DNA from: Candidatus Nealsonbacteria bacterium
GTDB lineage: Bacteria; Patescibacteriota; Minisyncoccia; Minisyncoccales; JANBVM01
Length of the DNA stretch: 64,000 bases
Reading direction: 5' to 3'
Assembly (NCBI GenBank): GCA_026016225.1
Contig: CP061210.1
Coordinates: forward strand, 593,131 to 657,130
Part shown: piece after piece, positions 5,431 to 61,574 of the stretch
Layout: every line of letters starts with the position of its first letter
Numbering within the stretch: the first letter of the stretch is position 1
Position numbers and translations under genes: made by a program
The notes under the pieces: model-generated
Databases searched by the model: none
Seen by the model: only the letters and a program-made list of their open reading frames with translations
Told to the model about the DNA's origin: nothing

Positions 5431-5459
5431 TGCTAATTATAAGTTGAGATTATTAATAA

Positions 5460-7529
5460 TTATTTCCTTACCTCCCATTCAGGATCTTTTTCTAAGACTT
5501 TAATTATTTTCTCTTGAATATCATCTATTTCTTTTGAAGTTAGTGTTCTGTCTTCTGCTTGATAAATTATATGAAAAGCCAAATTCTTTTTTCCCTCAGC
5601 TATTTCTTCTCCTTCGTAAATGTCAAAAAGGTCAACATCTTTAATCAGATTAAGACCAGTTCCCTCAATTTTATTTAAAACCTCCTCAACTAAAACATCT
5701 CTCGGAACCAAAACCGCTATATCTCTGACAGCAGATGGATAAGGAGAAATTGGTCTAAATTCCTGTTCTTCTGAAACAAGTTCTTGTAGTTTTTCAAAAT
5801 CAAAATCAAAAATCACTACTTTAGCGTTTAATTTTAAGGCCTCTGTAATTTTAGAAGAAATCTCTCCCAGAAAACCGACTTCCTCATTACCTATCTTAAT
5901 CTCAGCACGCCTTTTGGAATTCCAGACAAAAGCTTTTGATTCTTCTGGTGTTGGTTGATATTGGTCATACCAAATATCGCTTATTCCCAAATTATTCAAA
6001 AGCAAATCTATAACACCTTTTGCCTCATAAAATACCTCACCTGTCATTAAACCTGTGAGAGCTGTTTTTTCTTTATCTTTTTCATTTTTGAAAATCTTTC
6101 CCAGCTCAAAAATTCTAATATCATTGAAACTCGCCTGCCATCGCCTTGAGCTCAAGCGATTGGCGGGCAGGAACTTTTGATTCTCCTGAAAGCTTTTTAG
6201 AACTTTTGGAATCAAACTTGGCCTTAAATACTGAAAGTCAGCACTAATCGGATTCTCTGTCTCAATCAACTGAAAATTTCTATAACCGAATAATTTAGCT
6301 TCTTCCTTATTAATAAAAGAAGAGCTATAAATCTCAGTAAATTCTGCTTCCTTTAATATATTTTTTGTCATATCTTCCCAGAAAACATTAAGATTTCTTT
6401 CAGGCGGAATCAAAGCAGCTTTAGGAAAAACAGAAGGAATTTTCTCATAACCATAAATCCTTCCAATTTCCTCAATTAAATCCTCAGGAATTGAAACATC
6501 CAGTCTAAAACTAGGAATCTCTATCATAAGTTGATTGGTTGATGATTTGAGAAATTTAAAACCAAGTCGCTTTAGAATATTTTTTATTCTGCTTGTTGAA
6601 ATTCTAACTCCCAGCAAACTCTCGACATAATCTAAATCTAATTTAATTTTCTTTATTGAAACTTTTTTAGGGTAAAAATCAACCAATCCCTTACAGATTT
6701 TGCCTCCGGCAATCTTTCCAATCAAATAAGCTGCTCCATTTATTCCAAATTCGGTTAAATTCAAATCCAAACCATGTTCAAATCTCCATGAAGCATCTGT
6801 TTTCAAATCTATTTTTTTGGAACCCTTACGAACAACTCTTGGATTAAAATTAGCAGACTCTAACACAATAACTTTTGTTTTTTTTGTTATCTCGGCCTTT
6901 TTCCCGCCTTTTATCCCGGCAATTGCCAAAGGGTCTTTTACATCCGAAATAACTAAAATATCCTTATTTAATTTATATCTTTCATTGTCTAAAGTAATAA
7001 TTTTTTCTCCTTTTTTAGCTCTCCTGATAATTATCTTTTGGTCTAAAATTTTATCCAAATCAAAAGCGTGTAATGGCTGACCTGTTTCCAACATCACGTA
7101 ATTTGCAATATCAACCACATTATTAATCGGTTTTAAACCTAAAATCTTTAATCTGTCCCGAAGCCATTTTGGAGAAGGAGCTATCTTGACATCTGTAACA
7201 ACTCTGGCTGTATACCTTAAACAGTCTTTTTTGCTTTTAACTTTTAGTTCTATAAAATCCTTTGCTCTATATTTTCCCTCTTTTAAAGAATAGTCTTCAA
7301 ATCTTAATTTAGTATCTAAAACAGCAGAAATCTCTCGAGCAATACCTAAATGAGAAAAACAATCAGGTCCCCTATTGGGCAAAATATCAATATCTAAAAC
7401 CCAATCCTTTCCTATTTTTTCTACCTCTTCAACCTCAAAGCTGTGCATTGTTAAAACCTCTGCTAATTTATTGGCTTTTGGCAGTTTTTTCTTAAAAAAT
7501 GATTGTAACCAGTTATAAGAAAAAAGCAT
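5460..7529 (-). CDS. pheT: phenylalanine--tRNA ligase beta subunit
   Basis: N-terminus MLFSYNWLQSF, B3/4 and B5 regions, and a C-terminal anticodon-binding-like domain. It is adjacent to pheS. It is short at 689 aa and seems to lack the N-terminal OB tRNA-binding domain. Confidence 0.9.
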   Translation of the reverse strand: MLFSYNWLQSFFKKKLPKANKLAEVLTMHSFEVEEVEKIGKDWVLDIDILPNRGPDCFSHLGIAREISAVLDTKLRFEDYSLKEGKYRAKDFIELKVKSKKDCLRYTARVVTDVKIAPSPKWLRDRLKILGLKPINNVVDIANYVMLETGQPLHAFDLDKILDQKIIIRRAKKGEKIITLDNERYKLNKDILVISDVKDPLAIAGIKGGKKAEITKKTKVIVLESANFNPRVVRKGSKKIDLKTDASWRFEHGLDLNLTEFGINGAAYLIGKIAGGKICKGLVDFYPKKVSIKKIKLDLDYVESLLGVRISTSRIKNILKRLGFKFLKSSTNQLMIEIPSFRLDVSIPEDLIEEIGRIYGYEKIPSVFPKAALIPPERNLNVFWEDMTKNILKEAEFTEIYSSSFINKEEAKLFGYRNFQLIETENPISADFQYLRPSLIPKVLKSFQENQKFLPANRLSSRRWQASFNDIRIFELGKIFKNEKDKEKTALTGLMTGEVFYEAKGVIDLLLNNLGISDIWYDQYQPTPEESKAFVWNSKRRAEIKIGNEEVGFLGEISSKITEALKLNAKVVIFDFDFEKLQELVSEEQEFRPISPYPSAVRDIAVLVPRDVLVEEVLNKIEGTGLNLIKDVDLFDIYEGEEIAEGKKNLAFHIIYQAEDRTLTSKEIDDIQEKIIKVLEKDPEWEVRK

Positions 7530-49179: not shown

Positions 49180-50037
49180 ATGAGTAAAGTTATTGTTAAG
49201 TGCTCTTATTGTAAAACGGAATTCCAGCGAGAATTGGGAAGATACAACGAAGCAATAAAGAAAAGTTGGAATCAGTATTGCTCTCAAGAATGTCAAAATA
49301 AGTCTAAGATTAAAAGAGTAGAAAAAATTTGCGGTAATCCAAAATGTAACAAGAGGGTGTCTCGTAAATTCCACGAATTTAAAAAATCAAAATCAGGCAG
49401 CATCTTTTGTTCTCTTTCTTGTGCCGTGTCGGTCAACAATTCTAAATTTCCAAAAAGACAGGCAATAAAAAGAAAATGTCTCTATTGTGAAAAAGATTTT
49501 GTCGGCGGAAAGAAATATTGCTCGATAAAATGCAAAAATAAAGCCCAAATTATAAGCAAAGAAGAAATCTGTGATAAAATTAAAGGGTTCTATAAAAAAT
49601 ATAGAAGGATTCCTGTCAAAAAAGAGTTCTCTCATTATAATGCTGCTCGAGATCGGTTCGGTTCTTGGAATAAAGCAATAGAATCAGCAGGCTTCGTACC
49701 TAATCCAGTAGTATTTGCAAGAAAGCACAAAGCAGAAGATGGACATGTGTGCGATTCTCTATCGGAAAAAATTGTTGATGATTGGCTTTCTAAAAACAAC
49801 TTAAAGCACAAAATTAATGTTGCCTATCCAGGGAATCCCCGTCTAACATGTGATTTTTTAGTAGGTAACTATTTTATAGAATTTTTCGGAATTGGAAAAG
49901 AACACGTACGATACACAGAACTAATGAAAGAAAAAAGGCGATTGGCTCAACAGTATAACCTTAATATGGTAGAACTAAAGCCTGAACACATTTTTCCTAA
50001 AAATAAGTTAGACGCTGTATTAAATTTTCTTCTATAA
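49180..50037 (+). CDS. multi-Zn-ribbon protein with homing-endonuclease-associated repeat and C-terminal PD-(D/E)XK/Vsr-like nuclease-like domain
   Basis: Three CxxC...(F/Y)CSxxC modules are followed by FYKKYRRIPVKKEFSHYNAARDRFGSWNKAIESAGF, an HNH-associated-repeat-like pattern. The C-terminus is CDSLSEKIVDDWL...TCDFLVGNYFIEFFG, like small DUF559/Vsr-type nuclease folds. The family assignment is pattern-based only. Confidence 0.45.
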   Translation: MSKVIVKCSYCKTEFQRELGRYNEAIKKSWNQYCSQECQNKSKIKRVEKICGNPKCNKRVSRKFHEFKKSKSGSIFCSLSCAVSVNNSKFPKRQAIKRKCLYCEKDFVGGKKYCSIKCKNKAQIISKEEICDKIKGFYKKYRRIPVKKEFSHYNAARDRFGSWNKAIESAGFVPNPVVFARKHKAEDGHVCDSLSEKIVDDWLSKNNLKHKINVAYPGNPRLTCDFLVGNYFIEFFGIGKEHVRYTELMKEKRRLAQQYNLNMVELKPEHIFPKNKLDAVLNFLL

Positions 50038-50105
50038 AAACAACTAAGATTAATTACAGAGATAGAAATTCTCGGGTATTCTAAACTTAGCGCGAACCTA
50101 TTTTC

Positions 50106-50155
50106 AGCGAAACGCCTAACCGCCGTTTCGCTTTGCCCGCGCGAAGCGCGGGCAA
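50106..50155. repeat. two adjacent perfect GC-rich hairpins downstream of the nuclease-like gene
   Basis: AGCGAAACG-cctaaccgc-CGTTTCGCT at 50106-50132. TTGCCCGCGC-gaa-GCGCGGGCAA at 50133-50155. Confidence 0.8.
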
Positions 50156-50187
50156 GGAAAAGAAAGTTTTTCAAAAATCTTTATTGG

Positions 50188-50212
50188 ACGCCGTAAAAAT
50201 CGGTGTTTTTTT
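50188..50212 (+). terminator. intrinsic terminator
   Basis: ACGCCG-taaaaat-CGGTGT (one G-T pair) followed by T7. Confidence 0.5.
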
Positions 50213-50260
50213 GTTGTTTTTGTAAAAGGAGCATTTTTACGAAAAACCGGTCTTTTGCTC

Positions 50261-50289
50261 TTGACAAAATTAAAGTATGGGTGTATAGT
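50261..50289 (+). promoter_or_regulatory. sigma70-like promoter
   Basis: TTGACA (50261-50266), a 17-nt spacer, then TATAGT (50284-50289). Confidence 0.6.
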
Positions 50290-50341
50290 AGAGGTGTAAG
50301 AATAAGATAGTTCTTTGAAAAAATATGGGGAAGGGAATTTG

Positions 50342-50388
50342 CATCACCCGAATTGTTCATCAAATTCTGGTGGCCAGCTCGGGTGATG
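50342..50388 (+). promoter_or_regulatory. leader hairpin that can sequester the Shine-Dalgarno of the downstream ORF
   Basis: CATCACCCGA (50342-50351) and TCGGGTGATG (50379-50388) form a perfect 10-bp stem, with a nested CTGG-tgg-CCAG hairpin inside. The 3' arm contains GGTGA 7 nt before the ATG at 50394. Confidence 0.45.
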
Positions 50389-50393
50389 TAAAA

Positions 50394-50903
50394 ATGAAAA
50401 TAATAGATAATAGCAAAGCAATAATATTGGGGGAGAAGGTAAGGTTTAAGAAAAACGCAACATTAATTGATGAAAAAATAAAGGTTAACCGGGATTATAT
50501 AGTAAAACAAGTGGAAACACAAACACTTAACTTTAGAAAACGAGGAATTAGAAAGATTAATCAAATTATAGAACTACAAGAGCTACCAGGGCGCTGGTTT
50601 TCAGTAGATTGGCTTGATTTAGTCGAGTCAGAGGAAATCCCAATTCGTGGAATAAACCTAGTTTCATTCGAAGAATATAAGAAGCTTGGAGGAAAGTTGG
50701 CTAGGGAGGAACACAAACGGCTTAAGCGAATAAGCTCTCCACAAGAGGAATATCGAGAAGCATTCAGAGTGGCTGGTGATGTAGGGTGTGGATATCCTCC
50801 TCATCCAGAAATGGAGTTACTTGCAAGAGTATGCATGTTGAAGTCTAACCTTTCATCGTTAGATAAAATGTGCGAAATGCTCCTTCTGCAAGGTAAAAAA
50901 TAA
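50394..50903 (+). CDS. hypothetical protein (ORFan)
   Basis: The track ORF 50325..50903 has an alternative ATG at 50394 (MKIIDNSK...) with a GGTGA SD, whereas the ATG at 50325 has none. I recognise no family. Confidence 0.4.
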   Translation: MKIIDNSKAIILGEKVRFKKNATLIDEKIKVNRDYIVKQVETQTLNFRKRGIRKINQIIELQELPGRWFSVDWLDLVESEEIPIRGINLVSFEEYKKLGGKLAREEHKRLKRISSPQEEYREAFRVAGDVGCGYPPHPEMELLARVCMLKSNLSSLDKMCEMLLLQGKK

Positions 50904-51267: not shown

Positions 51268-52332
51268 TTAAATATTGAAAACATCAACCAATTGTTTTAT
51301 CAAAGAAACAACTACCGGTGGAGGTAATAAACTATAAGAAGAGACACCTTCATCATCTGTCACTACCCATGGTTTCTCTTTTATTTTTACTTTTTTTATC
51401 TTTTTATCCCATTCAAAAATATATTCTGGGGTTATTTCATAATCATCAACAAAATTTGCAGCTTCCTTAACAGGTACCGAATTTCTCAATAAAACCTTTG
51501 GAATTCCATAGAGAGAAAAAGATTGTCTAATTAATTTATCATCCATAATTAATCTTTTTTTTATAGGTGCAATCCCCAACTCGTCTCCTTCTTTTAAAAT
51601 CATTTTAGCTTTTTTACACCTGGGATTGTCGCAAATTAAATAAAATTCATTGCTTTTTTCATCAAATCCAGCTTCTGAGGTTGGAAGTAGCTTTAAGTTT
51701 CTCGAAGTCTGGCAAACCGGACAAATCCTTCTCCATCTAATTCTTTCATCAATTACTTTTTCAGGAACATCAATTAAAATAAAAACGTCCGGGTCATCTC
51801 GATGACCAACCAAGTCTCTGAAAAACAAAGAAAAATCTATCTGGTCTAAATCCCTTGGAAAACCATCCACAAAAAGAGTTTTCTTTTCCATTCTTTCCAT
51901 CTCTCTTTTAACCAAAGTTAAAATCAATTCTGTAGGTAAAAGAACTTTTGTGCTCCTGTTTTCTAAAAGGGATATTATTTCTTTAATTGAAATCCTGCCC
52001 CGATAATTTCTTTTTAAAAAATCAAAGAATCCTTCTCTCTTTTTTTTATCTGTTAATTCTCCGTCTATTTTTCTAATCATATCTCCAATGGAAAAGTGCT
52101 CTATCTTTTCAGGCCCAATAATTTCTGCAAACATCTTTGAATAAGTTCCCTTACCTGAGTTTTTCTTACCTAACAAATAAGCAACAAAAGTATTTTCTTT
52201 CAAATACTCTTTTAATTTTTCTATCTCTTTTCCTGCTTTGGCTTTAAAATATTTTTTTCTCTCCCTGAGGTTTATTAAATTAAATTTTTTTTCAAAGCCT
52301 TTAATTTTTGTTTTAAAAAGAGGAAATTCCAT
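51268..52332 (-). CDS. divergent adenylate-kinase-family protein with extended Zn-lid and an extra C-terminal domain of about 100 aa
   Basis: P-loop GKKNSGKGT, DGFPRD, and lid RWRRICPVCQ...CDNPRCKK. It is a second AK-like gene besides adk at 32154. Confidence 0.5.
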   Translation of the reverse strand: MEFPLFKTKIKGFEKKFNLINLRERKKYFKAKAGKEIEKLKEYLKENTFVAYLLGKKNSGKGTYSKMFAEIIGPEKIEHFSIGDMIRKIDGELTDKKKREGFFDFLKRNYRGRISIKEIISLLENRSTKVLLPTELILTLVKREMERMEKKTLFVDGFPRDLDQIDFSLFFRDLVGHRDDPDVFILIDVPEKVIDERIRWRRICPVCQTSRNLKLLPTSEAGFDEKSNEFYLICDNPRCKKAKMILKEGDELGIAPIKKRLIMDDKLIRQSFSLYGIPKVLLRNSVPVKEAANFVDDYEITPEYIFEWDKKIKKVKIKEKPWVVTDDEGVSSYSLLPPPVVVSLIKQLVDVFNI

Positions 52333-53203
52333 AGTATTTAGGGTTTAGGATTTTTAAATTTTCTCCATCAGAGAAAATCTTTATATCTCCGTCTCTGTCG
52401 GTTCTTAAAACTTTTATATCATATTTATCTAAAATATCCAAAACTTCTGGATGGGGGTGCCCATAACTGTTTTCTTTACCAACAGAAATTACAGCTATTT
52501 CAGGATTCACTTCTTCCAAAAATTTTTCCGAAGTAGAAGTCTTACTTCCATGATGACCAACCTTTAAAATATCAGAATTAAGATATAATCCCCTATCCAC
52601 AAGTTTTTTCTCTATTGATTTGTAAAGGTCTCCGGTAAAGATAAAAGAATTATTATTAAAGACCAATCGAAGTGCAATTGAAGTATTGTTAGTATTCTTA
52701 ACTTCTTTACCTTCTAAATCCTCAAAAGGATGTAAGACATCAAAAAAGATTTTTGGAGTTAGTATCTTCTGACCTATTTTAGCTATCTTTGTTTTAACAT
52801 CTTCGTCCTCAATTAATTTTTTCCATTCTTTATACTCTCCAGTATCCTTTAACACACCACTCCATAAAATAAAATCTACTTTATATCTCTTTAAAACCTC
52901 AAGCAAACCTGCGATATGGTCATGCTCAGGATGAGTCAAAACAATCAAATCAATAGTTCTATCCCAAAAAGGCATTTCTTTACCTAATTTTTCCAAAACA
53001 GCGGAGGTCGGACCTCCGTCAATTAAAATTTGATAATTATTTGGGGTTTCAATAAAAATAGCATCACCTTGTCCTACATCAAAGAAACTAACCTCAAGAA
53101 ATTGAGGTTTGTTTAAATCATAAACTACAGACCAGGCAAAAATATTAACACAGAATAAAGTAACCAGAATCCAGAAAATAAGTTTTTTGTCTTTCTCTAT
53201 CAT
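52313..53203 (-). CDS. membrane-anchored MBL-fold hydrolase, ComEC/Rec2 C-terminal-domain-like
   Basis: N-terminal TM, DVGQGDAIFIE, THPEHDHIAGL (HxHxDH), and KVGHHGSKTS. Confidence 0.7.
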   Translation of the reverse strand: MIEKDKKLIFWILVTLFCVNIFAWSVVYDLNKPQFLEVSFFDVGQGDAIFIETPNNYQILIDGGPTSAVLEKLGKEMPFWDRTIDLIVLTHPEHDHIAGLLEVLKRYKVDFILWSGVLKDTGEYKEWKKLIEDEDVKTKIAKIGQKILTPKIFFDVLHPFEDLEGKEVKNTNNTSIALRLVFNNNSFIFTGDLYKSIEKKLVDRGLYLNSDILKVGHHGSKTSTSEKFLEEVNPEIAVISVGKENSYGHPHPEVLDILDKYDIKVLRTDRDGDIKIFSDGENLKILNPKYYGISSF

Positions 53204-53315
53204 TTTTTACACTATAAACAATTTGATTATTTACTTCAACAATAATCTTTGACAAAAATATAAAGATATGTTAGAAATAGGTAGTTACATTATATATTAT
53301 TTTAAATAAGACAGA

Positions 53316-53672
53316 ATGGGTGAGGAAAGATTGGAATCGTTTAAAATAAAAGCAGAAGAGGATAAGGAAAATCCTCCAGAAATACCACCGTTGCCTAATA
53401 AGAAAGGAGATTTAATAAAGTTATCAAGGAAAAGATTTGAAGTTGTAGCAAGAGGTTTACCAGACCTAAACCTGACCTTTAAACCAGGAGCAATAAGCAC
53501 ATTCTTTGAAGGCGTAAGATGTCCTTTCTGTGCTACGAGGTTCATTAGAAAAGTAACATGTGGTCATTTAAACATTACGCGTGAACCTTTCTTGTGTCCT
53601 AATTGTGACTTTCCAACAAATGTTTATAAAGTTAGAGATGCTCTTTTAAAGAAAAGTAATCTGAATTTATAA
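53316..53672 (+). CDS. hypothetical Cys-rich protein (CPFC...CPNC)
   Basis: 118-aa ORF. I prefer it over the antisense ORF 53297..53545 because of its composition and Zn-ribbon-like Cys pairs. Confidence 0.4.
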   Translation: MGEERLESFKIKAEEDKENPPEIPPLPNKKGDLIKLSRKRFEVVARGLPDLNLTFKPGAISTFFEGVRCPFCATRFIRKVTCGHLNITREPFLCPNCDFPTNVYKVRDALLKKSNLNL

Positions 53673-53704
53673 ACAATGAGGGTAATAACTTACTCTCTTT
53701 TTTT

Positions 53705-53750
53705 ACACCCTCACTGCTATCCTGAAAGGAGCATAGTTGTCTAAACTTTG
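53705..53750 (+). repeat. left copy of an imperfect 45-bp direct repeat
   Basis: acaccctcactgctatcctgaaaggagcatagttgtctaaacttt matches 54974-55019 at about 33 of 45 positions with no gaps. Confidence 0.6.
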
Positions 53751-53758
53751 AATTAACT

Positions 53759-54106
53759 GTGCTCTGGCTGACCGAAAATTTTAGTTGTGTTTCCTTTGAC
53801 AGAAGTCTAATGATAGTCTATAAACAAGATAGAAAATTAAAAAAGGTGAAATATTCTTTGATAAGGGAAGAAAGAAATTATCTGGGGATATTGATATATA
53901 TATTTGGATTAATGTCATTGTGTTATGGGCTTGAAATCTACTCTGCGAACCTTTTCCTTACAATTGTACTAGGGATTTTAGGAATAGGTTTAATATTAAC
54001 CGGTTGTGCACTTAACAAAGAAAGGGACTTTATACTGGGATTTTTTTTAGTATGTGGCTTGATTATATCTGCCATGTATTCTTTACTCTTATTTAAGTTA
54101 CTATAA
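53759..54106 (+). CDS. hypothetical small membrane protein (start uncertain)
   Basis: Hydrophobic C-terminal two thirds (ILIYIFGLMSLCYGL..., LTIVLGILGIGLILTGC, FFLVCGLIISAMYSLLLF). A good promoter at 53796-53824 lies inside the track ORF, so the real start is probably downstream of about 53830. Confidence 0.35.
   Translation: MLWLTENFSCVSFDRSLMIVYKQDRKLKKVKYSLIREERNYLGILIYIFGLMSLCYGLEIYSANLFLTIVLGILGIGLILTGCALNKERDFILGFFLVCGLIISAMYSLLLFKLL
53796..53824 (+). promoter_or_regulatory. sigma70-like promoter
   Basis: TTGACA, a 17-nt spacer, then TATAAA. The architecture is identical to the promoter at 55039. Confidence 0.5.
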
Positions 54107-54234
54107 TGTGAAGTATTGCCGTAAAAAGTAGAATAAAGTCTTGCAGGCAAAGTATAAGCCTGCCTTTTTTATTCCTAAAGCCAAAAAACCAAAGCTTTTA
54201 AACTTTGGTTTCAATTTTAAAGGGAGCTTTATTT

Positions 54235-54465
54235 TTACTTTAAAACATTTAATATTTTTTCTTCGTCAAAATCTTTTGAAAGGAGAAACTTGCAGATACT
54301 ATCCGTTATTTCTCTTTTAATATCATTTTTTCTTGGAATAGTAGTTTTTTTGCCATTTTCTTTACATTCGGCTTTAGTGTGCTTACCTCCTTCTTGAATA
54401 TCAAGCCCTAATTGTCTTAAACCACTGAGCATTACCTTTCTCTTACAAGGAAAATAAAAATTCAT
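54235..54465 (-). CDS. hicA: HicA/YcfA-like toxin (putative mRNA interferase)
   Basis: From the ATG at 54465: MNFYFPCKRKVMLSGLRQLGLDIQEGGKHTKAECKENGKKTTIPRKNDIKREITDSICKFL. This fits the HicA pattern, with GKH in place of GSH and with TIPRxxxIKxxTxxSIxK. Confidence 0.55.
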   Translation of the reverse strand: MNFYFPCKRKVMLSGLRQLGLDIQEGGKHTKAECKENGKKTTIPRKNDIKREITDSICKFLLSKDFDEEKILNVLK

Positions 54466-54473
54466 AAAATTGG

Positions 54474-54821
54474 CTAAGGGACACAAACGACTCCTCGAAA
54501 AAATGGAATTGGTCTTCGGAGAAATTCGGCTGGTATAGCCTTTTTCCAAGCTTGGACTAACTTTTTTCTTATTTCCTCAGAAGGAAAATATCGAGGCAAA
54601 TAAGGAATATATTTTTCAGGAATACCGAAATAAGTATAAATAGCGTCATTGACCATCACAAATAACTCTTCGGAGTTTTCCGCTTGCGTAAAACACCCCT
54701 CAAGATTTAATATTTTTACCCAATATCCTCCATCTTTAGATTCTTCAACCTGAACCCGAACAGAATCAGGAAGTTGTGCCTGATAGTTAATTAATTTATT
54801 AAATTCAACTTTTTCAAACAT
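54474..54821 (-). CDS. hicB: HicB-like antitoxin (N-terminal RNase H-like fold domain)
   Basis: DGGYWVKILNLEGCFTQAENSEELFVMVNDAIYTYF is the typical HicB/UPF0150 core. The ATG at 54821 is preferred over the TTG track start at 54860. The gene ends 8 nt before hicA. Confidence 0.6.
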   Translation of the reverse strand: MFEKVEFNKLINYQAQLPDSVRVQVEESKDGGYWVKILNLEGCFTQAENSEELFVMVNDAIYTYFGIPEKYIPYLPRYFPSEEIRKKLVQAWKKAIPAEFLRRPIPFFRGVVCVP

Positions 54822-54938
54822 AGGAGAGATATTAATGATTAAAAATAGTAATAAAAACAAAAGCGACTTCTCTTACAAAAGATTTAATAGTCGCATAGTG
54901 TTTTGGCTACTACTCGCATAGTCGACTTCTACATCCTC

Positions 54939-54964
54939 ATTATAGCATAAAAAATATTTGTCAA
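54939..54964 (-). promoter_or_regulatory. extended -10 promoter for hicBA with downstream direct-repeat operator candidates
   Basis: Minus strand reads TTGACA, a 14-nt spacer, then TGcTATAAT. The leader carries ACTATGCGA twice (plus-strand tcgcatagt at about 54891 and 54914). Confidence 0.45.
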
Positions 54965-54973
54965 GAAGTATTT

Positions 54974-55019
54974 AAACCCTCACCTCTATCTCAAACGGAA
55001 TATAGCTGTTTAAACCTTT
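54974..55019 (+). repeat. right copy of the imperfect 45-bp direct repeat
   Basis: aaaccctcacctctatctcaaacggaatatagctgtttaaacctt. See the left copy at 53705. Confidence 0.6.
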
Positions 55020-55038
55020 TTTTTTATTATTGCCGCTT

Positions 55039-55067
55039 TTGACAAAGGCCTAACAATAATTTATAAA
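55039..55067 (+). promoter_or_regulatory. sigma70-like promoter
   Basis: TTGACA (55039-55044), a 17-nt spacer, then TATAAA (55062-55067). Confidence 0.5.
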
Positions 55068-55116
55068 TAAAATGGTATATTAAATTATAAATAAAAAAAT
55101 AAAGGAGGTGAGAAAG

Positions 55117-55410
55117 ATGGAGAAGCTTGAATCTGTAGTTTCAACGATTATCGAACTTTTCATAAGATATTGTCCTTCGGTTAAGAAAATTGCAGGGGAT
55201 TTAATAACAGAAGAATTTAAAGTAATAGAGTTAGAAAACAAGGATGACACTCAGAAATTAGTAAAATATCTTTCCAAAAAGGGATGGAAGGGAGATTTCA
55301 CTTCAGTGGTAAATTGGAAAGAAATAAAAATAGTATGGAGGGTATATTTTAAAAGAAAAGTAGGAGTAACTAATGTACTATGTAATTATCTGAATTATAT
55401 AAAAAAATAA
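55117..55410 (+). CDS. hypothetical protein (ORFan)
   Basis: A strong SD (AAAGGAGGTG) lies 6-7 nt before the ATG at 55117. It is followed by the GGTGC-acaa-GCACC hairpin. Confidence 0.45.
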   Translation: MEKLESVVSTIIELFIRYCPSVKKIAGDLITEEFKVIELENKDDTQKLVKYLSKKGWKGDFTSVVNWKEIKIVWRVYFKRKVGVTNVLCNYLNYIKK

Positions 55411-55494
55411 TAATGATGTAGTTTTTAAGAAAAAGGGTGCACAAGCACCTCTTCTCTTTTTCTAAACTTATATTTTTTTATTTTTTATAAGAAG

Positions 55495-55551: not shown

Positions 55552-55713
55552 CTATGCTTTTCCTAATATTCTAAACATTGTAGTTCCACATTTCGGACAT
55601 TTTCCTTTTGCAGCCCTTCTCTTAGTTCCACCCTTTCCCTTCATTGTCACTTCCTTCATATCTTCCATCGTCTGCTTTTTTTTACATTTTACGCAATATG
55701 CTATTGTTGCCAT
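55552..55713 (-). CDS. small zinc-ribbon protein (DUF5679-like pattern)
   Basis: Below the ORF-track cutoff. My translation is MATIAYCVKCKKKQTMEDMKEVTMKGKGGTKRRAAKGKCPKCGTTMFRILGKA (53 aa), with CxxC...CxxC. Confidence 0.55.
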   Translation of the reverse strand: MATIAYCVKCKKKQTMEDMKEVTMKGKGGTKRRAAKGKCPKCGTTMFRILGKA

Positions 55714-58520: not shown

Positions 58521-58553
58521 AAAAAATACAGAGGACAACCCTCTGTATTTTTG
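58521..58553. terminator. bidirectional intrinsic terminator
   Basis: TACAGAGG-acaac-CCTCTGTA flanked by an A-run and a T-run. Confidence 0.6.
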
Positions 58554-58571
58554 TTTAATTATCAAGTAAGT

Positions 58572-58898
58572 TTATTCTTCTTCGTATAAATTATACGCTT
58601 TTCCCTTTTTTCTGGAAAGAGACCACCGAATTAAAAAAGTGCTGAATCCCAAAACAAGGAAAATCCATATAGTCAAACAAGCACAAATTTTAAGATAGAA
58701 AAAAATTGTCAAAATTATAAGTATTAAAGTCCAGACAAGCCAAGTTCTTGTTTCCTTGTTCCTCTTCTTCCATACCTTAATAGTTTTTACTAATGAATAT
58801 AAGACTAAGATTAAAATTATCCACCAGGGGAAACAAGAAGAAGCTTCTATACTAAATATTTGAGATATAAAGGAAAATACAAAATCATCTAAAAACAA
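58572..58898 (-). CDS. hypothetical small membrane protein
   Basis: 108-aa ORF with 3-4 hydrophobic helices. The start is uncertain because the first codon overlaps a terminator hairpin. Confidence 0.35.
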   Translation of the reverse strand: MFLDDFVFSFISQIFSIEASSCFPWWIILILVLYSLVKTIKVWKKRNKETRTWLVWTLILIILTIFFYLKICACLTIWIFLVLGFSTFLIRWSLSRKKGKAYNLYEEE

Positions 58899-58928
58899 AA
58901 ACCGATATTTTTCAAATCGGTTTTTTTT
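58898..58928 (-). terminator. intrinsic terminator after the ZIP transporter gene
   Basis: AAAACCGAT-9 nt-ATCGGTTTT with T-runs on both strands. Confidence 0.5.
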
Positions 58929-59017
58929 AATCTTTCAAAACTTTCAAATCTTTATTTTTAACAGTTCTCTTCTTTATTATATTAGTTATCTTTTTTCTGA
59001 TTTAGTCTCTGCTCTCA

Positions 59018-59770
59018 TTATAACACAATTTTTATTAACAACATTAGTGATATCCCAAATAAAAAGACAGTAAAATAGATTATTGATTTTTTAACATTTT
59101 CCTGCTGTTTAATCTCAGGGATTAAATCTGATGAAGCAATATAAATGAAATTCCCAGCAGCAAAGGGTAATAAAAAAACAATTGATTCTCCTATTCTTTC
59201 TGAAAGTAAAAACCCAATAATTCCACCAAAAATTACACTAATAGCTGATAAAAAGTTTAAAAACAAAGCCCTTGTTTTTTTAAACCCTCCATAGATTAAA
59301 ATTCCAAAGTCTCCGATTTCTTGAGGAATTTCATGAAGAGCTACTGCTAAAGAAGTAACTACTCCCAGCTGAAATGAAGCGACAAAAGAAGCTGCAATGA
59401 CTAAGCCATCAATAAAGTTATGTATGGCATCTGAAAATAAAATTAAATAAGAAAATGGCATTATCTTAGGGTGCTCTCTGGCGTGATGGTGATGCCACTT
59501 AATAAAGTTTTCCAAAACAAAAAAGGTACAAAATCCAAAAATCAAATATAAAAATAAATTCAAAATTTGGTCTGGTTCAAAGAGCTCAATTGCTTCTGGA
59601 AGTAAATGAAGAAAAGCTCCTCCGATTAAGGCGCCGGCAGAAAAAGCCACTAAAACCAATAGGAGTTGGTCTAATAATCTTTCTTTTAAAAATAAGGTTA
59701 AAGCTCCGATAAAGGCGATAAGACTGATTAAAGAAGTACAGAGAATGATATAAAAAAAGACAGCTGCCAT
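59018..59770 (-). CDS. zupT: ZIP-family divalent metal (zinc) transporter
   Basis: HNFIDGL and HEIPQEIGDF motifs, and a His-rich loop (WHHHHAREH). Confidence 0.8.
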   Translation of the reverse strand: MAAVFFYIILCTSLISLIAFIGALTLFLKERLLDQLLLVLVAFSAGALIGGAFLHLLPEAIELFEPDQILNLFLYLIFGFCTFFVLENFIKWHHHHAREHPKIMPFSYLILFSDAIHNFIDGLVIAASFVASFQLGVVTSLAVALHEIPQEIGDFGILIYGGFKKTRALFLNFLSAISVIFGGIIGFLLSERIGESIVFLLPFAAGNFIYIASSDLIPEIKQQENVKKSIIYFTVFLFGISLMLLIKIVL

Positions 59771-60984: not shown

Positions 60985-61574
60985 ATTTTTGGTATTAATT
61001 TTTCTAAAATCTTAAAATCCTTTTTAAGAATTCCTTTCATATTGATGTTATAAGTAGCTACGGCCGGATGATAAAGAGGAATAATTTTAATGCTCTGAAA
61101 AAGACTTTTAACCTCAAAAACTTTTCCGTGGATTTTGCTTATTCCCTGAATTTGATCTTTTAGTCCGTATTCTTCAAAAATATATTTTGTAGAATGATTC
61201 CCTAAGGTGCAAATTACCTTGGGTTTTATGATTTTTATCTGTCTATCTAAATATGGAGAACAAGCTTCAATCTCGTTTAAATTTGGAGCTCTATTCTTCA
61301 AATCAGAAGTTACAGGCCGGCATTTAAGTAAATTGCAAATATAGACTTCTTCTCTCTTCAGGTTAATGGATTTTAAAAGCTCATCCAAAATCTTCCCCGC
61401 AGCCCCAACAAACGGTTTGCCTTTTGCGTCTTCCCAATATCCCGGGGCCTCAGCGCAAAACATTATTTTCGCCCGAGGGTTCCCTTCTCCGGGGACATAA
61501 TGGGCAATATTTTTGTACAAAGGGCATTTCTTACAGCTCAAGATTTCATTTTTTATTTTTTCTAACTCTTCCAT
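60981..61574 (-). CDS. family 4 uracil-DNA glycosylase (Fe-S type)
   Basis: CKKCPLY...GEGNPRAKIMFCAEAPG...C...HP pattern. Confidence 0.8.
   Translation of the reverse strand: MEELEKIKNEILSCKKCPLYKNIAHYVPGEGNPRAKIMFCAEAPGYWEDAKGKPFVGAAGKILDELLKSINLKREEVYICNLLKCRPVTSDLKNRAPNLNEIEACSPYLDRQIKIIKPKVICTLGNHSTKYIFEEYGLKDQIQGISKIHGKVFEVKSLFQSIKIIPLYHPAVATYNINMKGILKKDFKILEKLIPKI

Follow-up and report, generated by a model that had tools for sequence, protein, structure and literature searches.

A diverged 48-bp direct repeat bounds a strain-variable accessory segment with a HicBA-like gene pair in Candidatus Nealsonbacteria

We analyzed a 64,000-nt stretch of contig CP061210.1 of Candidatus Nealsonbacteria (positions 593,131 to 657,130; here called the window, with a G+C content of 33%), in which two similar sequences, S1 (53702-53749) and S3 (54971-55018), flank a small membrane-protein gene and a gene pair resembling hicB and hicA. 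We found that S1 and S3 form a 48-bp direct repeat, identical at 36 of 48 positions and with a start-to-start spacing of 1,269 bp, and that this repeat is real, homologous and a recombination boundary of a segment that varies among strains. An earlier note on this DNA, made from the sequence alone, had described an imperfect 45-bp direct repeat bracketing a cassette. When its two strings were compared without gaps where it had placed them, 33 of 46 positions matched, and the similarity was seen to run 3 bases further leftward. The bracketing repeat thus holds in extended form, as do the gene content between the copies (one small membrane-protein gene and the hicB-hicA-like pair) and the presence of CTAT...ATAG in both. 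In the interpretation that we favor, at a probability of about 0.5, S1 and S3 are paralogues that mark boundaries within a modular accessory slot, and modules drop out of this slot when short diverged repeats recombine.

A statistical check placed the S1/S3 similarity beyond chance. An all-against-all comparison of 48-mers in the window yielded just three pairs with at least 36/48 identities; besides S1/S3, these were a pair of coding paralogues (11879/16788) and a T-rich low-complexity pair. Second-order Markov shuffles of the window (n = 8) peaked at 34-35/48 and never exceeded 35, and when the two upstream regions were aligned locally with gaps, they scored higher than 999 of 1000 dinucleotide shuffles (p about 0.001). 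A second, colinear match (53793 vs 55036, 35/48) spans P2 and P3, the promoters of the membrane-protein gene and of the gene that follows S3; taken alone, this promoter similarity is marginal (p 0.03-0.05 in the local-alignment shuffle test). That S1 and S3 resemble each other merely as two AT-rich intergenic regions is thus very improbable. The low G+C content, the 34-35/48 reached in shuffles and the share of the extended similarity that promoter consensus explains all speak for coincidence, but 36/48 lies above all eight Markov shuffles, and the local alignment is significant for this particular pair. Moreover, a related contig from the Joint Genome Institute (JGI), L056, carries an S3 that is intermediate between S1 and S3 at positions 21-22, and a natural in-register recombinant of the two copies in genome CP179892.1 effectively refutes chance.

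This recombinant is one of several arrangements of the locus, which exact-protein look-ups placed in complete genomes of Candidatus Nealsonbacteria, about 0.65-0.69 Mb in size. Two minus-strand core genes flank the variable interval, one MBL-fold/ComEC-like (52313-53203) and the other encoding DUF5679 (55552-55713). The interval consists of four self-contained modules: Z, a gene for a cysteine-rich protein; M, the membrane-protein gene; hicBA (H in the formulas below); and X, a hypervariable small gene. A hairpin, T, lies between M and hicBA. The window order, Z-S1-M-T-hicBA-S3-X, is the fullest arrangement recovered. It was also found in CP179891.1, which is 98.5% identical to the window, and in Logan contigs (haplotype A, Z-S1-M-T-H-S3-X). 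In haplotype B (Z-S-X), represented by CP179892.1 (L001/L058; 98.3% identical), precisely the 1,269 bp are missing and one chimeric copy remains, with positions 1-35 from S1 (35/35) and positions 36-48 from S3 (13/13), followed by the P3 flank. The exchange occurred within ATAG (positions 32-35), where the identical core is 4 nt. A relative with an empty, single-copy site, which the earlier note had envisaged, thus exists. Haplotype E (L064, about 92% identical) is likewise empty (Z-S-X); all 48 nt of its copy are S1-type and fused directly to the P3 flank, the right arm matches S1 at 11/13 vs S3 at 9/13 positions, and the junction falls at about positions 46-48, the right edge of the repeat. 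Haplotype D (L060/L061/L063; Z-S1-M-T/S-X) has M but no hicBA: window position 54212 is joined to 54993 (about position 16-22 of S), so that the 3' portion of T that resembles S (TTTAAACTTTGGTTTC) runs directly into the right-hand two-thirds of S3, and its S1 is identical to that of haplotype A. Finally, haplotypes C (L056, about 93% identical; P1-M-T-H-S3-X) and G (L068; P1-M) are without Z and S1; in both, P1, the promoter of Z, is joined to the M leader at the -10 end of a 31-nt, 74% identical repeat shared by P1 (53247-53277) and P2.

The module combinations observed are therefore ZMHX, ZMX, ZX, MHX and M, with hicBA and the membrane-protein gene varying independently. The four junction types (B, E, D and C/G) all fall in register inside short imperfect direct repeats, namely S1/S3, T/S3 and P1/P2. 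The crossover positions differ (about 16, 35 and 48 of S, plus the promoter repeat), and as far as the junction it is always the left copy that remains. Such a set cannot result from one site-specific reaction that crosses over at a fixed point. The precomputed Pfam annotation of the called genes, out to about 10 kb in both directions, contained no integrase, transposase or resolvase family, and Pfam detected no recombinase domain in the cassette proteins.

We propose that S1 and S3 are diverged, locus-specific, untranscribed paralogues that separate small gene modules with promoters and terminators of their own, and that these modules fill a strain-variable slot between the MBL-fold/ComEC-like and DUF5679 core genes. 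S1/S3, the S-like end of T and P1/P2 would serve as the short imperfect direct repeats at which modules drop out, most likely through RecA-independent slipped-strand or template-switch events on the nascent plus (lagging) strand, and homologous exchange between co-resident strains would then reshuffle the haplotypes. The repeats themselves may have first been duplicated by an old cassette insertion or by duplication of a spacer-plus-promoter head. We infer the slippage mechanism, its direction (loss, not gain) and the strand from comparative data. Throughout the window GC skew is negative, and the core genes on either side lie on the minus strand; skew and gene orientation thus identify the plus strand as the lagging one, and the retention of the left copy fits template switching. 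RecA-independent deletion between short direct repeats has been described for Escherichia coli lacI and for tandem-repeat deletions on plasmids. The present locus resembles those cases in the in-register loss between nearby direct repeats that leaves a single chimeric copy, in the several independent junctions that all fall inside repeats, and in a one-copy bias compatible with a strand-specific replication error. It differs in that the repeats are long (48 nt) and 75% identical with identical runs of at most 8 nt, and in that the longest identical run was not preferred by the junctions.

Several observations weigh against this interpretation. Two sequences with 36/48 identities and identical blocks of at most 8 nt, the longest shared by S1 and S3, are a poor substrate for slippage, and at two of the junctions the local identity extends over only 2-4 nt, outside the 8-nt block. 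The pattern of left-copy retention is based on four junctions only. Besides, CP179892.1 carries a further deletion, of 950 bp (window 58722-59673; L001 about 5690), which truncates a ZIP-family permease gene and whose junction shows 1-2 nt of microhomology and no repeat. The polarity of the changes is not established because the strains are mosaic, and site-specific excision or integration would give the same chimera as haplotype B. For example, haplotypes A and C diverge by about 12% in M vs about 1.6% over 54185-55180, and the identity between haplotype D and the window is 98% on the left side of the D junction but on the right side only 78% in X, even though P3 has 97%. Homologous exchange between strains is therefore frequent, which undermines a simple polarity argument. 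In addition, hicBA in haplotypes A and C is bracketed by an imperfect repeat of its own (TTTAAACTTTGGTTTC ... TTTAAACCCTCACCTC), and with this flanking repeat and far less A-C divergence than its surroundings it looks like a recent arrival, not a relic. A last difficulty concerns the pattern of substitutions within S. Six versions of S share 28 invariant columns, and CTAT/ATAG with the flanking blocks is invariant in five of the six. Nine substitutions separate the S3 of haplotype C from the window S3 and the S of haplotype E from S1, and only 2/9 affect any of the 36 positions at which S1 and S3 agree (binomial p 0.0013), which hints at sequence-specific constraint or at gene conversion between the copies.

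Further analysis of S showed that the element is confined to this locus. No third copy was found in the window, either by a scan of conserved positions or by an nhmmer profile, and when the profile was run over the window together with about 0.62 Mb from related loci (about 0.69 Mb in total), S was recovered at this locus only; further copies elsewhere, which the earlier note had considered, were thus not encountered in this DNA. This distribution also argues against a dispersed repeat of the repetitive extragenic palindrome or miniature inverted-repeat transposable element type and against a regulon operator motif. Pattern scans with two S halves of 22 specified bases each gave no match in collections of genome and metagenome contigs that evidently do not contain this species, as L056, which matches the pattern, was not returned. 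Scans of viral sequences likewise gave no S match. A possible third, degenerate copy at the left end of hicBA (54193-54250) had no statistical support past its first ~17 nt. S1 lies between the terminator of Z and P2, and S3 between the divergent promoters of hicBA (minus strand) and X (plus strand), and both are therefore expected to be untranscribed. As single-stranded DNA, S folds at -1.2 to -4.1 kcal/mol with z-scores of -0.3 to -0.7 (-2.6 for one strand of S3). Covariation of the CTAT...ATAG stem, which the earlier note had put forward as a check, was not significant: the stem is invariant, with one nearby compensatory change, and 89/500 shuffles did as well. A structured or cis-regulatory RNA was thus rejected on the basis of untranscribed position, weak folds, lack of significant covariation and lack of an Rfam match, as was a target-site duplication, since the copies differ at 12/48 positions while the flanks of occupied and empty genomes are 98% conserved.

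A related arrangement was observed in another species. The core genes of contig L007 (CP179887.1) have 78-79% nucleotide identity to the window, and beside its MBL gene, after the stop codon of a gene for a 129-aa zinc-ribbon protein, it reads CCTTTTTTATTTCTAAACCCAAAAAATCAAAGCTTTTAAACTTTGACCTCTATCATTGTTTAAACCTT, that is, a T hairpin fused directly to a short S without the central ~14 nt. The S3-type blocks TTTAAAC, CCTCTATC and TGTTTAAACCTT are present in this short S, and S-type blocks are kept where the surrounding intergenic DNA is unalignable. The L007 copy of T (5432-5476) is 93% identical over 45 nt, vs 78-79% for the flanking core genes; it overlaps the last codons of the 129-aa open reading frame. 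In the window, the 3' part of T (54196-54212, TTTAAACTTTGGTTTC) resembles the left end of S. The T-S joints of L007 and haplotype D are at different positions, and the junction in L007 could be ancestral or itself a deletion chimera. Because L007 has T-S at the same locus, S and T either predate the split of the species or were passed between co-resident species, and they are bound to the locus. An attempt to polarize the changes with L007 as outgroup failed, since its T-S junction can be taken either way and homology between its 129-aa zinc-ribbon gene and Z could not be demonstrated (E 0.06). A pattern scan of metagenomes for the T element gave no match, and 27 viral matches to an 18-mer of T turned out to be an unrelated conserved phage coding sequence.

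We considered whether S could be an att-like site of small recombinase-less cassettes (M, hicBA and perhaps Z and X) moved by a recombinase encoded elsewhere, which we regard as unlikely. An excised circle would then be expected to join the left part of S3 to the right part of S1 (...GGAATATAG|TTGTCTAAACTTTGAATT..., that is, ...AAACGGAATATAG|TTGTCTAAACTTTGAATTAAC), and a circle of 1,269 bp would set S between two divergent promoters, a compact design. The geometry of the empty site agrees with this idea, as the chimeric copy has the composition of an attB (left of attL, right of attR), and putative attP and attB that are similar but not identical are also seen in attC systems and in integrative mobile elements exploiting Xer recombination (IMEX). 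So do the S-left-like imperfect repeat around hicBA, a segment much less diverged between A and C than its flanks, the sparing of conserved S positions by substitutions, and the occurrence of an 81% identical hicBA in an unrelated phage-like contig, described below. However, that homologue has no S, no additional S site was found in any searched DNA, no recombinase gene lies within about 10 kb, and with junctions B, E, D and C/G at different positions at most one could be a canonical crossover. Among the properties of att, attC and dif sites, only the geometry of the empty site was found here. The locus resembles attL and attR of integrases in having direct repeats on both sides of an accessory segment and an unoccupied single-copy site in a relative. 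It differs in that S1 and S3 are only 75% identical and agree over 4 nt where B crosses over, in that no tRNA target is present, in that the junctions vary, and in that neither integrase nor excisionase is encoded in or adjoining the segment (within about 10 kb).

Comparison with integrons and Xer systems gave a similarly divided picture. attC sites are imperfect palindromes of 55-141 nt that act as single-stranded hairpins with R''-L''/L'-R' boxes, and chromosomal arrays often carry toxin-antitoxin (TA) cassettes. The present locus shares with them small recombinase-less modules, including a TA pair with its own promoter, imperfect sites of ~50 bp, and a chimeric site after loss. In contrast, there is no IntI, attI or Pc nearby, only 2-3 sites exist (two full and one partial), the 48-nt S has neither a stable hairpin, with no significant covariation, nor a fit to the R''/R' consensus RYYYAAC/GTTRRRY, the B junction lies left of the G|TT position of R', and the modules point in both directions. 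dif is a site of 28-31 bp with two inverted 11-bp arms and a 6-8-bp center, and the chromosomal dif lies at the skew switch of the replication terminus; pdif modules, known from Acinetobacter plasmids and often carrying TA genes, are bounded by inversely oriented sites, whereas S1 and S3 are direct repeats. IMEX and pdif modules, which are moved by a host recombinase in trans and for which TA genes are typical cargo, are similar to our segment in having no recombinase of their own, in their similar but non-identical sites and in their TA cargo; they are dissimilar in that S has no 11-6-11 XerC/XerD dyad and no conserved XerD arm, and in that the locus is not at a GC-skew switch. A dif assignment was rejected: CTAT and ATAG of S are separated by 12 nt, and its right arm, TGTnTAAAC, is unlike the arms of the TTATGTTAAAT type (judged by reading the sequence against dif consensus sequences, not with a model). 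A broader idea, to which we give still less credence, is that S and T would be the ends of undescribed recombinase-less, promoter-bearing micro-cassettes in the ultra-small genomes of Patescibacteria, with single-gene or TA modules of 0.5-1.3 kb moved at non-identical 48-bp sites by a host enzyme in trans, as a functional analogue of integron cassettes and pdif modules with an unrelated site architecture. The suggestion of the earlier note that the copies are att-like scars of an inserted TA cassette therefore survives in part: the repeats are recombination boundaries and an empty site exists, but the segment is composite, the junctions vary, no integrase is nearby, and an S-like element was already at the locus in another species.

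The other suggestion of the earlier note, a site shared by a common regulator, found no positive support. In this scenario, S would be an operator or activator site at which one protein binds ACCCTCAC, CTATC...ATAG and TGTnTAAAC near P2, P3 and the hicBA promoter; co-regulatory function would keep the copies similar, deletion between them would be a side effect, and this role could coexist with the other interpretations. We consider it improbable, to about the same degree as mobile cassettes with an att-like site. It would account for the position of both copies in untranscribed DNA just upstream of sigma-70-like promoters, for S3 abutting the -35 box of the hicBA promoter, for the invariance of CTAT/ATAG and its flanking blocks in 5/6 versions with substitutions on the positions that vary between S1 and S3, and for the conservation of S-type blocks in L007 amid unalignable intergenic DNA. 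On the other hand, S is 46 nt from the -35 box of P2 and 20 nt from that of P3, a difference of 26 nt, other genes in the window and related loci have no copy upstream of them, and no candidate regulator was identified, HicB being without a DNA-binding domain recognizable by Pfam. Haplotype D has other sequence in place of the left half of its P3-proximal copy, and C and G drive M from P1 without any S. By these arrangements, S is dispensable for the expression of these genes. Loss of modules between diverged boundary repeats thus remains the interpretation that we prefer.

Almost all genes of the window are on the minus strand, with this interval as the exception. Module Z (53316-53672, plus strand) encodes a 118-aa cysteine-rich, zinc-ribbon-like protein without a Pfam family; an exact look-up found no record of it, and a homology search gave two clusters only, which yielded no additional haplotype. 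It is preceded by P1, read from the sequence at about 53249-53277 on the plus strand, and followed by a terminator at 53678-53704 (this and the other terminators were located by a terminator scan). TGAGGGT in the 5' arm of this terminator (53677-53683) is perfectly complementary to ACCCTCA in S1 (53707-53713), and the S3 counterpart of this block, CTCACCTC, is complementary to the Shine-Dalgarno region of gene X (GAGGTGAG, about 55103-55110); both may be coincidence. Promoters of the form TTGACA-N17-TATAAA follow each repeat copy, as the earlier note had reported, at 46 nt beyond S1 and 20 nt beyond S3. These are P2 (53796-53824, plus strand; TTGACA 53796-53801, TATAAA 53819-53824) and P3 (55039-55067, plus strand; TTGACA 55039-55044, TATAAA 55062-55067). 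Module M (53858-54106, plus strand) encodes a predicted 82-aa membrane protein, most likely from a TTG start 6 nt after AAGGTGA, and ends in a terminator at 54144-54170; its product has no Pfam family, and homologues were found in this lineage only. The T hairpin (54163-54212) is the minus-strand terminator of hicA. Module X (55117-55410, plus strand) encodes a product of 97-100 aa and is followed by a bidirectional terminator (55435-55450). Between strains, X has 76-91% nucleotide identity with products of 93-107 aa, while the P3 region (55019-55116) is 96-98% conserved in all haplotypes and the DUF5679 gene is 99-100% conserved in most strains, a contrast that suggests diversifying selection or allele swapping. 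PADLOC gave no defense-system match for any of the five small proteins.

The minus-strand pair consists of a hicB-like antitoxin gene (54474-54821, 115 aa) and a hicA-like toxin gene (54235-54465, 76 aa). A promoter for both is predicted from consensus at 54939-54964 on the minus strand, with an extended -10 (TGCTATAAT) and a TTGACA box, and S3 starts 6 nt upstream of its -35. Two direct TCGCATAGT repeats (54891-54899 and 54914-54922), 23 nt apart, lie between this promoter and the hicB start and are a candidate operator for autoregulation of hicBA. HicB of the window matched PF15919 at 18.4 bits (E 0.003), under the 27-bit gathering cut-off; within its family, 17/20 members matched PF15919 (best E 1e-5), and the best PDB matches of the family profile were the HicB antitoxin chains 6hpb and 6u0i (E 0.03). 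HicA of the window had no direct match in Pfam or PDB, but shares 45% identity (E 4e-18) with the product of a gene paired with a HicB homologue, and that partner is labeled PF07927 HicA_toxin in the precomputed Pfam annotation. Taken together, these matches support a HicBA-like assignment for the pair, though below curated thresholds. In common with type II HicAB systems, the pair would combine a putative HicB-fold antitoxin with a small HicA-like toxin in a strain-variable, horizontally exchanged module, and the 8-nt intergenic gap and single upstream promoter suggest co-transcription. It departs from them in that both proteins fall below Pfam thresholds, the antitoxin gene comes first, and HicB has no DNA-binding domain recognizable by Pfam. 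Outside this locus, hicBA was found at 81% nucleotide identity in L057 (Logan SRR26215687, 4967-5584), an unrelated phage-like contig without S or T, where its neighbors are HNH, HNH_3 and Peptidase_C1 genes and a gene for a 1,371-aa protein. This contig may represent a phage or mobile element of a related host.

Other differences between the genomes were noted elsewhere in the window. CP179892.1 has ~1.4 kb with ABC_tran and ABC-3 genes (L001 2943-4377) between UDG and ParA/Fer4 genes, and these two ABC-transporter genes are missing from the window (about 60989-61014) and from CP179891.1. Upstream of the H+-PPase gene, window 58537-58889 and L003 2154-2285 (the comparison with CP179891.1) are unalignable, although their flanks are 98.5-99% identical. 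At 49180-50903, 2-4 kb from the locus, two more plus-strand genes encode a 285-aa HNH_repeat protein and a protein of ~167-192 aa; the local GC skew flips there, and this may be another accessory insertion.

The feature described here is of a known kind, an accessory islet that carries a TA module, varies among strains and lies between direct repeats, in an under-studied phylum. Patescibacteria (the candidate phyla radiation) have tiny genomes in which the gain and loss of accessory genes is little known, and this locus provides an example resolved to the base pair, with four small modules including a HicBA-like pair, at least six natural haplotypes, and junctions that all lie in short diverged repeats. 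If modules are indeed lost between repeats, streamlining of these genomes can run via boundary repeats, and TA modules are not protected from it. If instead the modules proved to be mobile cassettes, they would represent a new trans-mobilized cassette system in an uncultivated phylum. Either way, the S junctions are handy strain markers for co-resident Nealsonbacteria populations.

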